Source: a virus (Duplodnaviria; Heunggongvirae; Uroviricota; Caudoviricetes). Taken from it: a stretch of 4,487 nt of DNA. Positions 2,665-4,487 of this stretch are shown one piece after another. The DNA lies in the IMG/VR virus record IMGVR_UViG_2671180338_000011; one strand, written 5' to 3'. The notes under the pieces were generated by a model. The model was not told the DNA's origin and did not search any database. It was given only the letters and a program-made list of their open reading frames with translations. Within the stretch, counting starts at the first letter, position 1; each line of letters starts with the position of its first letter. The position numbers and the translations under genes are program-made.

Positions 2665-2827
2665 GATTCCTCCTTGCTGCCAGTCGCAACCATTTTTTAT
2701 CAACCAGGCTAGCGGTATATCCGAGCAGTGTTGGTATTTCGGATGGCTTCAGCTCAGGCTTACGCTTACGACGATTTGATACTCTGTAGATGTGCCCGTT
2801 CATGACACGAATAAGCGGTGTAGCCAT
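2657..2827 (-). CDS. ninE: NinE-family small protein (56 aa), not in the supplied ORF track
   Basis: Hand translation of the minus strand from the ATG at 2827-2825 gives [56 protein letters not shown], stop TGA at 2659-2657. The basic C-terminal region resembles lambda NinE. Start overlaps the ybcN stop (TAATG); 3' end overlaps the ybcO start by 8 nt. Confidence 0.7.
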   Translation of the reverse strand: MATPLIRVMNGHIYRVSNRRKRKPELKPSEIPTLLGYTASLVDKKWLRLAARRNHG

Positions 2828-3282
2828 TACGCCTCCTGCTTATCGCGCAGCTGCTGGTATTCACAGCTCTGCGGAATTGTCAGGTGGCAGCCGATATTCA
2901 TCGCCCAGGCTTCGACTTTGCACAGGAAGATGTACATCTCGCCGGTTTCCAGCTCTGACGTATGGCGGAGGGATTGGACGGTGGTGACCTCGCCGGACAC
3001 GACATCTACACGGTCTTTGCTTTCGTAGCCGAGATAGGTGTGCTTCATCGCGTCTTTGACCCACTCAGGCGTAGCGAAGGTCTTGCCGCGGGCGATGAGA
3101 TATTCGCTGATCTCCGTGTACCACATGTGGCTGAGCGCGTTCTGCGACAGGCTGCGCTTCTCGCGCCACGGCTTAACCTGCAGGCGTAAGCATTGCCCGG
3201 CATCCAGCAATGGCTGAATCTGCTGGCCGATGGCCGCGAAGTTACCGCGATGGAGTTTGATGCCGTCTACTGGCAGAGTCAT
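2827..3282 (-). CDS. ybcN: NinB/Orf-family recombination protein (DLP12 YbcN-like), 151 aa
   Basis: ATG at 3282-3280 with GGGAGG 4 nt upstream on the minus strand. The RSLSQNALSHMWYTEIS segment resembles the RSLDQN...LW motif of lambda NinB. First gene of the nin cluster, as in DLP12. Confidence 0.85.
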   Translation of the reverse strand: MTLPVDGIKLHRGNFAAIGQQIQPLLDAGQCLRLQVKPWREKRSLSQNALSHMWYTEISEYLIARGKTFATPEWVKDAMKHTYLGYESKDRVDVVSGEVTTVQSLRHTSELETGEMYIFLCKVEAWAMNIGCHLTIPQSCEYQQLRDKQEA

Positions 3283-3308
3283 ACGGCCTCCCTAACGGAA
3301 ACCGCAGA

Positions 3309-3338
3309 ATGCAGAAAATCGCAGGTGCATTTCTGCAT
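3309..3338. promoter_or_regulatory. Inverted repeat with 9-bp arms ATGCAGAAA/TTTCTGCAT and 12-bp spacer, 27-56 nt upstream of the ybcN start; candidate operator or leader RNA structure
   Basis: Perfect arm complementarity read directly. Lies in the divergent intergenic region between ybcN and the AT-rich cassette. Confidence 0.3.
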
Positions 3339-3369
3339 CTGTGACAAGGTGATGAGTTCAGATTGTGGT

Positions 3370-3393
3370 CGCATTTAAGTCCCCTTAAATGCG
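3370..3393. other. Strong stem-loop: 10-bp perfect stem CGCATTTAAG/CTTAAATGCG with 4-nt loop; function unassigned
   Basis: Read directly. No U-tract on either side, so not a canonical intrinsic terminator. Sits just before the GC-to-AT composition shift. Confidence 0.35.
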
Positions 3394-3502
3394 CAGAAGT
3401 CACCGGAGTTGTTCAGGCTCCGATGAGAGGATTATGGCGGATTGATTACGATAAATCAAAACTATCTTGAAGCCAAAACAGTGATCTTCGCTTTAAAAAC
3501 CT

Positions 3503-3510
3503 TGTATACT
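3503..3510 (+). promoter_or_regulatory. Candidate extended -10 element (TGTATACT) for the AT-rich cassette
   Basis: TATACT hexamer with TG immediately upstream, about 37 nt before the ATG at 3547. No convincing -35 hexamer at 17-bp spacing; AT-rich upstream sequence could act as an UP element. Inferred only. Confidence 0.3.
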
Positions 3511-3546
3511 TTCACCTAATCACAGCCAGAACTATGGATCTAACCA

Positions 3547-3924
3547 ATGACCAACAAAGAAAACAAAGATAAATATATTAACAAGTTCAAGAAAGAGCTT
3601 TCAAAATATATACAACCAACTGCTGGAGTGGACATTCAATTATTTAACTCTAAGGATGGTGGTGGTGTAATTAAAGCCACTTTGAATAGAAGTGGAAAAA
3701 GAAAATCATCTATTGCTGGTAATTTTACTAAATTAGGTGAGGCAATTACCTCGAGTGGGCAGAGGGTTTTTGGTGGTGATCTATCAAATGTGAATTTTTA
3801 CGGAACAAATACGATTTTTGATGGAGATACAATATTTTTAATTAAATCACCTGATTCAGAGGAGTGGTCATCACAAAAAGCTTCCAAAGACGTAGAGGGC
3901 ATCGTATTTGGAGGGAAAAAATGA
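3547..3924 (+). CDS. Hypothetical protein, 125 aa, Lys/Gly-rich, no signal peptide or TM segment, family not recognised; first gene of AT-rich cassette
   Basis: ORF with in-frame TAA two codons upstream of the ATG. Weak RBS (GGAT). About 30% GC by eye. Stop TGA overlaps the downstream ATG (ATGA). No conserved motif I can name. Confidence 0.6.
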   Translation: MTNKENKDKYINKFKKELSKYIQPTAGVDIQLFNSKDGGGVIKATLNRSGKRKSSIAGNFTKLGEAITSSGQRVFGGDLSNVNFYGTNTIFDGDTIFLIKSPDSEEWSSQKASKDVEGIVFGGKK

Positions 3925-4349
3925 TTAACATTACTACTAAGGATGGCACTCAAGTCAGTGGTGAAGTAAGAGATCTAGTAATTCTTCTTGAAACTGATGG
4001 AAAAACGGTGTCTGATTATTTGCAGCCAATCCCTCCCAAAAAAGATACACACTGGAGCATGATTTTCATTCCGGTAGCAATTTATATACTACTTAATCTT
4101 GTATACATTATTGCTCACCCATTATTTCCTGAAAAATATCTAAAAACATCAACATCTATATTTCTATTCATTTCCTTCATATTAAGTGCAATAGTAGCAT
4201 ATTTTGTTTTCCATAAGCATAAATCTGCCACTCTATCCATATGCAGCTTAGTGTTCTTAGTGTTAATTGTAGGTGCTAACGTAGGGTTTATCAGTTACAG
4301 CGACCTAACACAAAAAGCGACGCAAAAATTAGATAGTTTGTCTAAATAA
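3921..4349 (+). CDS. Hypothetical small membrane protein, 142 aa: about 44-aa N-terminal soluble region followed by three predicted transmembrane helices; family not recognised
   Basis: ATG at 3921 preceded by GGAGGG (3910-3915). Hydrophobic stretches WSMIFIPVAIYILLNLVYIIAHPLF, IFLFISFILSAIVAYFVF and LSICSLVFLVLIVGANVGFI separated by short Lys/His-containing loops. The ORF-track start at 3864 is a GTG extension overlapping the upstream gene in another frame. Confidence 0.65.
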   Translation: MINITTKDGTQVSGEVRDLVILLETDGKTVSDYLQPIPPKKDTHWSMIFIPVAIYILLNLVYIIAHPLFPEKYLKTSTSIFLFISFILSAIVAYFVFHKHKSATLSICSLVFLVLIVGANVGFISYSDLTQKATQKLDSLSK

Positions 4350-4356
4350 TTATGTT

Positions 4357-4377
4357 GCCATGCGAAGTATGCATGGC
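4357..4377 (+). other. Stem-loop (7-bp stem GCCATGC/GCATGGC, 7-nt loop) 8 nt after the cassette stop; possible transcript-end structure
   Basis: Read directly; no U-tract immediately downstream, so terminator function is uncertain. Confidence 0.3.
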
Positions 4378-4487
4378 TGCATGTCTGCCTTCCATTTAAA
4401 ATGGGCTAAGACCTATAACCCTAAATATTATTCTTTATTATCTTCTTTACCACTTCGGTGATGCTGCCAACTTACTGATTTAGTGTA

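Follow-up and report, generated by a model that had tools for sequence, protein, structure and literature searches.

Which function does a lambdoid prophage keep in two very small genes that lie outside its lysis cassette and match no known family? The question is raised by a 4,487-nucleotide (nt) stretch of a Caudoviricetes sequence, IMG/VR record IMGVR_UViG_2671180338_000011 (the window, meaning the whole of this stretch). In it, the gene for a 142-amino-acid (aa) membrane protein, orf142, follows directly on the gene for a 125-aa soluble protein, orf125. An earlier note, made from the letters alone, had singled out orf142 as a possible membrane-depolarising effector or immunity protein. The two genes were found to form a horizontally mobile, self-contained prophage "moron" that is foreign to its phage backbone, and the two proteins are a new protein family realising a known general design. 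For their function we favour, at a probability of a little under 0.4, a two-component phage-exclusion or abortive-infection module in which a soluble partner would act with a membrane effector.

orf125 and orf142 Are Inherited as a Pair

The stop codon of orf125 and the start codon of orf142 overlap by 4 bp (ATGA, 3921-3924), and the Shine-Dalgarno sequence of orf142 lies inside the last codons of orf125 (Table 1). The start/stop overlap (ATGA; 17 nt in L010) and a purine-rich stretch before the start are kept in the homologous loci L002, L008, L010, L014 and L016, and the two genes are translationally coupled. The pairing with a small upstream protein, already pointed out in the earlier note, was borne out by these data. 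Both genes were present in every intact locus examined, covering prophages of Escherichia coli, Klebsiella and Enterobacter, small plasmids, and metagenomic or viral contigs. Moreover, a three-helix membrane gene always follows the orf125 homologues, at identities of 31-92%.

The two proteins diverge in parallel, with identities for orf125 and orf142 of 76% and 66%, 36% and 34%, and, in L034, 32% and 14%. At long range the soluble partner, not the membrane protein, is thus the more conserved of the two. Within the enterobacterial clade, the most conserved parts are the C-terminal third of orf125 and the first 36 residues of orf142. Strong purifying selection was detected on both genes, with ratios of non-synonymous to synonymous substitution (dN/dS) of 0.08-0.09 for orf142 and 0.08 for orf125, measured against Klebsiella-type alleles with synonymous sites saturated.

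orf125 is hydrophilic and basic, with an isoelectric point (pI) of 9.5, and its charge is complementary to that of the orf142 N-terminal domain (pI 4.9). It has no hydrophobic segment, no signal peptide and no recognisable DNA-binding antitoxin domain; its AlphaFold2 model reached a predicted local distance difference test (pLDDT) score of 58. Identification of orf125 as a double-glycine-leader microcin was dropped, because the AG at residues 26-27 is unconserved (IS in the plasmid clade) and neither a signal peptide nor an exporter was present. An (S)xY(L/I)xP helix end is common to both proteins (KKELSKYIQP within residues 15-26 of orf125, GKTVSDYLQP within residues 27-37 of orf142). The idea that the N-terminal domain of orf142 repeats the hairpin-helix units of orf125 was also dropped, as hhalign gave a probability of 4.9% and only the 12-column (S)xY(L/I)xP match.

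In one strain the pair is broken. E. coli CV839-06 carries an IS1A inside orf125 (L037 6866-7633, at window position ~3692) and has an intact orf142. The flanks of this insertion overlap by 10 bp, suggesting a target duplication, and the strain amounts to a natural knock-out of the partner. It is mild evidence that orf142 is not constitutively toxic; polarity of the insertion would account for the finding as well.

orf142 Is Predicted to Be a Three-Helix Membrane Protein

In a 19-residue Kyte-Doolittle scan, orf142 showed three hydrophobic segments at residues 45-65, 78-97 and 104-124, with peaks of 2.4-2.5, and no hydrophobic stretch in residues 1-40. The AlphaFold2 model, built from a 15-sequence alignment, has a beta-hairpin (2-14), a helix (16-25) and then three long helices. 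Its mean pLDDT is 73, with 80-89 in the helices and low values of 52-55 over the N-terminal domain. Because 4.6% of same-composition shuffles also have at least three hydrophobic segments, composition alone is weak evidence for the membrane layout. The evolutionary evidence is stronger, since the three-segment layout was present in all eight homologues tested, down to 14% identity. The earlier note had described a small soluble N-terminal domain followed by three transmembrane (TM) helices, and had named an AlphaFold monomer as a check; hydropathy, model and homologues all agree with that layout. Its statement that the helices are tightly spaced with short basic loops holds for the helices and not for the loops, as only loop 2 (HKHKSA) is clearly basic and loop 1 (HPLFPEKYLKTS) combines two positive charges with a negative one. 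The N-terminal 44 residues likewise stand as a small domain, the charge of which has to be corrected to acidic.

Loop 2 carried a net positive charge in seven of the eight homologues, and in most of them loop 1 was neutral or negative. By the positive-inside rule, an orientation with the N-terminus inside and the C-terminus outside is therefore favoured. We infer that orf142 sits in the inner membrane, and by this charge bias its acidic N-terminal domain is probably cytoplasmic. The N-terminus is highly conserved, as 15 enterobacterial homologues (60-85% identity) all agree at 29 of the first 36 positions, and the motif that closes the domain, VRDLVxLLExxGKxVSDYLQP, is recognisable in distant clades. 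Within the helices, conserved Asn59, Asn120 and a small-xxx-small motif are possible oligomerisation features; N120 and G122 never vary in the prophage and plasmid clades (GANVG, GTNAG, SANVG, SANFG).

Two other descriptions of orf142 were rejected. A longer, 161-aa form with a GTG start was dropped because the conserved start is ATG 3921, with GGAGGG five nt upstream, and a LysM-like identity of the N-terminal domain was dropped because no Pfam match was found and the spacing is wrong.

Homology and Fold Searches Identify No Known Family

The only significant PHROG matches of the two proteins were families 16940 (orf142) and 18061 (orf125), both of unknown function. Pfam, NCBIfam and PADLOC scans of both proteins and their distant homologues gave only sub-threshold membrane noise, for example 7TMR-DISM_7TM at 21 bits against a cutoff of 29. 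Profile searches of the PDB sequences with the partner family gave nothing below E = 0.39. Foldseek found nothing among viral structures at E<=0.001, and the other structure searches returned generic matches only. The view of the earlier note that orf142 matches no known family thus survived these searches, among which no confident match to a transporter or housekeeping membrane family appeared.

An exhaustive profile search of 1.84 billion protein representatives returned seven matches, six of them the family itself or fragments of it. The seventh was a weak repeat similarity (E = 1.4e-4) in a 571-aa metagenomic protein (P0036), which carries four tandem repeats of ~35 residues (…NVRDLVKKFENEGLTVEDYLHKACLKQ…) at residues ~290-440. 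These repeats resemble the orf142 N-terminal motif VRDLVILLETDGKTVSDYLQP. The likeness could reflect a shared small helical docking motif or chance.

The Cassette Is Foreign to Its Prophage Backbone

The GC (guanine plus cytosine) content of the cassette is 34%, against 51-58% in the flanking phage genes. A distant pair in a high-GC 58-kb viral contig also lies in a GC trough (45% versus 55-63%) and faces away from the genes upstream. In the window, the pair occupies the gap that separates replication gene P from ybcN/ninB and is read from the opposite strand, antisense to the early-right operon of the phage. The E. coli and Klebsiella cassettes are homologous in DNA over 3546-4364 only. On the ybcN side, positions 3299-3460 belong to the backbone and match the region upstream of NinB in L008. 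Site and orientation are constant in prophages with differing replication, nin and Q genes, and the gap itself is variable, being occupied by ren-emrE-ybcK in other DLP12-type and O157 prophages. The pair qualifies as a moron because it combines deviant GC, the opposite strand, bounded homology, variable presence and unrelated backbones (prophages and plasmids).

Candidate signals were present at both ends of the cassette. The upstream region has a -10-like hexamer, at a position that aligns with TATGAT or TATAAT in the Klebsiella and L008 cassettes. It has no convincing -35 and only a weak Shine-Dalgarno sequence (GGAT) for orf125, and a generic promoter scan did not raise the hexamer above background. 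The hairpin after the orf142 stop recurs at the same position in E. coli, Klebsiella and L008, and in Klebsiella its stem reaches 15 bp (-27.5 kcal/mol, z = -7.3). The hairpin has no U-tract; it marks the end of the cassette and is at most a putative terminator.

In L008 (GCA_030132385.1, 5297-6980), the cassette is directly flanked on one side by genes for a colicin-like protein of 377 aa and a colicin-immunity-like protein of 174 aa; on the other side is a gene with a DndB domain. Several accessory modules can thus accumulate in the gap.

The Pair Is Found on Prophages and on Small Plasmids

The pair occupies the same site in mosaic prophages of Klebsiella, Enterobacter and E. coli. The exact proteins of the window were found on at least 1,000 contigs, many of them from Shigella sonnei. 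Carriers of the family include uropathogenic E. coli 536, whose locus is identical to that of the window, probiotic strains, many S. sonnei isolates and plasmids of Klebsiella pneumoniae, one of which, 3.5 kb long, encodes the pair as WP_130949283 and WP_130949284. Among INPHARED phages, neither the DNA nor the protein search found a match.

Outside prophages, the pair is the only cargo beside a ColE2-type replicase, usually with Rop, on four contigs of 2.7-3.6 kb, which look circular because of their terminal overlaps. It is again the sole cargo of a 3.8 kb contig with relaxase and replicase genes, a putative plasmid. The proteins of this plasmid clade share ~35% identity with the window pair. 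The plasmid backbone is common in PLSDB with other cargo, and no PLSDB plasmid matched a plasmid-clade protein. In plasmid p6 of Klebsiella sp. PO552 (L049 3535-5320), the post-replicase slot of a related backbone, which is the position of the pair in the plasmid clade, holds a DUF4433-domain gene flanked by two hypothetical genes; DUF4433 is the domain of the DarT toxin family. In an 8.6 kb ENA contig (L009 2484-8434), a pair of the plasmid type and Rop are joined to genes like those of Bacteroidota (a TonB-dependent receptor, BACON and an endonuclease); this contig is probably a metagenomic chimera.

Prophage Backbone and IS1 Borders

The window is a fragment of a DLP12-type lambdoid prophage, in agreement with the earlier view of orf142 as phage-borne. 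The intact prophage is found in E. coli A7. Its left part comprises the lysis cassette, porin, quuD, ylcG, rusA, ybcO, ninE and ybcN. From ybcN onward follow two opposite-strand hypothetical genes, P, O, ydaT, cro-like and repressor-like genes, and further on the integrase and tRNA-Arg. In the intact prophage, the pair lies between P and ybcN, ~2.7 kb or five genes from the repressor-like XRE gene.

Both ends of the window are insertion sequence. Positions 1-31 and 4457-4487 match exactly, and in one orientation, the two ends of a 768-bp element annotated as IS1A. The right-hand IS1 cuts P, of which ~nine codons are left (4428-4456, minus strand), and this prophage copy is therefore defective. 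Two IS1 copies bracket the segment from porin to truncated P, which may have the shape of a composite transposon or may just reflect a break of the assembly at repeats. The left-hand IS1 is ~100 bp upstream of the porin gene; RefSeq annotates the product as 'porin OmpC', and it is a general porin, the NmpC-type lysogenic-conversion porin of DLP12-like prophages. The ybcN/ninB-family allele (2827-3282) shares only ~78% DNA identity with the common DLP12 ybcN, which is present in ~2,660 E. coli genomes, and only four records reach at least 99% identity with the window allele. The backbone that carries the cassette in this window is therefore a rare variant. On the minus strand, a weak terminator-like hairpin with TTTT behind it comes straight after the P stop (4403-4421; -7.7 kcal/mol, z = -1.4, a marginal fold), at the position of lambda tR2. 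An Rfam scan of the window found no RNA family.

Table 1. Genes, protein segments and candidate signals of the window, in order of position.
Feature	Position	Strand	Details
Phage porin gene	60-1220 (ORF, open reading frame); 138-1220 from the probable true start, ATG 138	plus	Porin_1, E = 4e-153
Q antiterminator gene	1409-1807	minus	
rusA	2015-2377	minus	
ybcO	2374-2703	minus	
ylcG and ninE		minus	
YbcN/NinB-family gene	2827-3282	minus	
Cassette-specific upstream region	3461-3546	plus	Backbone homology upstream of ybcN/ninB ends at 3460
-10-like TATACT (putative)	3505-3510	plus	~36 nt before the orf125 start codon
orf125, 125-aa soluble partner	3547-3924	plus	ORF; PHROG 18061 (unknown function), match 9e-85
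Shine-Dalgarno GGAGGG for orf142	3910-3915	plus	Inside the last orf125 codons; from sequence
orf142, 142-aa membrane protein	ATG 3921 to TAA 4349	plus	ORF, homologues, hydropathy, AlphaFold2; PHROG 16940 (unknown function)
orf142 N-terminal domain, residues 1-44	3921-4052	plus	Acidic, pI 4.9; predicted beta-hairpin and helix
TM helix 1, residues 45-65	4053-4115	plus	Pro51, Asn59 and Tyr62 invariant in a nine-sequence enterobacterial and plasmid-clade alignment
TM helix 2, residues 78-97	4152-4211	plus	Followed by short basic loop HKHKSA (98-103)
TM helix 3, residues 104-124	4230-4292	plus	Conserved small-xxx-small motif G118-A-N120-V-G122
Hairpin right after the orf142 stop	4351-4383	plus	Core GCCATGC-N7-GCATGGC at 4357-4377; -16.6 kcal/mol, z = -2.6

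Proposed Function and Its Alternatives

If the pair is an exclusion or abortive-infection module, orf142 would lie in the inner membrane and its acidic N-terminal domain would extend into the cytoplasm and dock the basic orf125 there. The pair would be expressed from the resident prophage or plasmid and would exclude phages or abort the infection. orf125 would be the specific component, a sensor or regulator answering the incoming phage. orf142 would be the effector, which may oligomerise via the Asn/GxxxG face of helix 3 and compromise the membrane, so that membrane potential would be lost or DNA entry blocked. When the host prophage is induced, antiterminated transcription from pR would cross the cassette in the antisense direction and might turn it off; this position in the pR operon suggests that the cassette is silenced on induction of its own prophage.

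Several findings weigh against this reading. The function is deduced from context, in proteins without homology to any characterised function. PADLOC-DB v2.0.0 (2023; 5,027 models) gave zero matches at E<=10 for either protein, and a literature search on the accession and the PHROG identifiers found no paper mentioning them. The AlphaFold2 models are mediocre (pLDDT 73 for orf142, 52-55 for its N-terminal domain and 58 for orf125). The promoter is a -10-like hexamer only, making expression in lysogens putative, and the gap that houses the pair is no pure defence hotspot, given ren, emrE and ybcK in DLP12 and O157 prophages. The family is also rare, with 48 carriers among 5,426 complete E. coli genomes, always on the chromosome, and two scans of the GTDB species representative genomes detected no relative. 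Finally, CV839-06 tolerates orf142 downstream of an IS1, where it may simply be unexpressed. A bolder version of the exclusion module is doubtful. It holds that the pair is the founding member of a minimal (~0.8 kb), previously unrecognised kind of two-component immunity that acts on the membrane and has neither sequence nor fold in common with RexAB; a cytoplasmic orf125 sensor would gate oligomeric orf142 via the conserved 36-residue docking domain. Such a system would be common to lambdoid prophages and the smallest Enterobacteriaceae plasmids, with distant relatives in other Gammaproteobacteria-like phages.

The strict co-inheritance of two coupled genes in one operon would also suit a toxin-antitoxin or addiction module, in which orf142 would be a membrane toxin held by cytoplasmic orf125 (or the reverse) and the pair would stabilise the prophage or plasmid instead of, or besides, excluding phages. 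The sole-cargo position on plasmids of 2.7-3.8 kb and the DUF4433 (DarT-type toxin) gene in the same slot of a related backbone fit this explanation, and the closest design is CptA(YgfX)/CptB(SdhE). On the other hand, no toxin or antitoxin family in Pfam, NCBIfam or PADLOC was matched, orf125 lacks a recognisable DNA-binding antitoxin domain, and CV839-06 is viable with IS1 in orf125 and an intact orf142, for which polar loss of orf142 expression would also account. Small plasmids of this type are usually high-copy, so that addiction modules are less needed. We regard this explanation as unlikely. Less probable still is a membrane function unrelated to phages, for example orphan immunity or resistance, directed at a pore-forming bacteriocin or at a compound that acts on membranes, or a small channel or transporter that is oligomeric and has its regulator in the cytoplasm. 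Immunity proteins for pore-forming colicins likewise reside in the inner membrane, are of similar size and have 3-4 helices. The small multidrug resistance (SMR) efflux gene emrE occupies the same gap in DLP12 and O157 prophages, and in L008 a colicin-like and an immunity gene stand beside the cassette. ColE1-like plasmids are classic carriers of bacteriocin and immunity genes (PMC8683028). Against this, no colicin-immunity, SMR or transporter family was matched above threshold in Pfam, where only sub-threshold noise appeared. The colicin-like gene of L008 comes with an immunity gene of its own, the pair is accompanied by no gene for export or lysis, and orf125 is unlike a double-glycine-leader microcin in lacking a signal peptide and a conserved AG at 26-27.

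Block of phage entry, with orf142 in the inner membrane stopping genome injection, orf125 as an accessory or stabilising protein and the cell surviving, appears rather improbable, below the phage-unrelated functions. P22 SieA, T4 Imm and HK97 gp15 block the genome injection of incoming phages, and a small inner-membrane protein on a prophage would be in keeping with such a role. The pair also adjoins ren in the post-replication gap, lambda ren being related to Rex exclusion, and its antisense orientation suggests expression independent of the lytic programme. To our knowledge, however, Sie proteins of this kind act as single genes, whereas here the soluble partner is the better conserved (32% versus 14% in L034). 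The own two PHROGs are the only significant matches, with no homology to known Sie proteins, and an entry block would be unusual cargo for a 3 kb plasmid. A holin/antiholin-like pair in the lysis control of the phage is nearly excluded. Although a small protein with three TM helices recalls class I holins, the prophage has its own holin-endolysin-spanin cassette (essD, rrrD, rzpD) elsewhere, beyond the porin gene and away from the pair, just as the earlier note had set orf142 outside a lysis cassette. The pair lies in the early region on the opposite strand, occurs on plasmids without lysis genes and matches no holin family in Pfam or PHROG. Moreover, its charge bias favours an N-terminus-in topology, whereas class I holins are N-terminus-out and C-terminus-in.

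If the exclusion or abortive-infection module is real, it would be among the smallest two-component systems known and, at 125 and 142 residues, easy to dissect. 'Cryptic' small plasmids and the post-replication gap of lambdoid prophages would then draw on one accessory cassette pool, and this link would help to mine for more systems and to foresee failures of phage therapy in Klebsiella, Enterobacter and E. coli. An addiction module or resistance determinant would still give a function to two PHROG families and several 'cryptic' plasmids.

Comparison With Known Systems

The closest parallel in layout is RexAB of lambda and of Pseudomonas putida (PP_5643/5644, PMC12894663), which like the pair is a two-gene prophage operon with a soluble protein followed by a small polytopic membrane protein. 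The proposed logic of sensor and membrane effector would be the same, and expression from the resident prophage is presumed. In contrast, neither sequence nor fold is similar, with no RexB or Rex match in Pfam (E<=1) or PADLOC-DB v2 (E<=10). orf125 has no homology to RexA, a two-domain DNA-binding protein of ~279 aa, and is half its size; the upstream partner is indeed too small for RexA, as had been remarked earlier. RexB is described with four helices, unlike the three helices and 44-residue N-terminal domain of orf142. RexAB stands beside the repressor gene in the immunity region, whereas the pair lies between P and the nin genes on the opposite strand and also on tiny plasmids. By analogy, the pair would work at most like a RexAB-type two-component system, of which it is no member.

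Of the likeness to RexB and class I holins suggested in the earlier note, the small size and the helix cluster remain, as an analogy without a match in sequence or fold. Class I holins and immunity proteins for pore-forming colicins resemble orf142 in length (~100-180 aa) and in their 3-4 closely spaced TM helices. They differ in family, no match having been found, and orf142 has an obligatory soluble partner and no adjacent endolysin or colicin gene in the window. Specifically, no Colicin_im or related match was obtained, and neither the window nor most loci contained a colicin gene. orf142 shares three helices with class I holins, and its charge bias favours the opposite topology. CptA(YgfX)/CptB(SdhE), a type IV toxin-antitoxin of a small soluble protein followed by a small inner-membrane toxin, has the same order in one operon, with a membrane protein of ~135-140 aa. 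The pair gave no Cpta_toxin or SdhE match in Pfam, however, and YgfX has two helices; CptA/CptB is chromosomal and housekeeping-linked, not a mobile low-GC cassette.

Defensive pairs of a soluble and a membrane protein expressed from prophages have been described for the RexAB-type system of P. putida (PMC12894663), for Butters gp30/gp31 (PMC7542560), and for CarolAnn gp43/gp44 and Sbash gp30/gp31 (PMC6426606). The hosts of Butters, Sbash and CarolAnn are unrelated Actinobacteria, and the sequence comparison is indirect, in that the window proteins match their own PHROGs only. Like orf125 and orf142, the Butters, Sbash and CarolAnn pairs place a cytoplasmic and a membrane protein side by side on a prophage, and their defence against heterotypic phages was found by experiment, not by homology.

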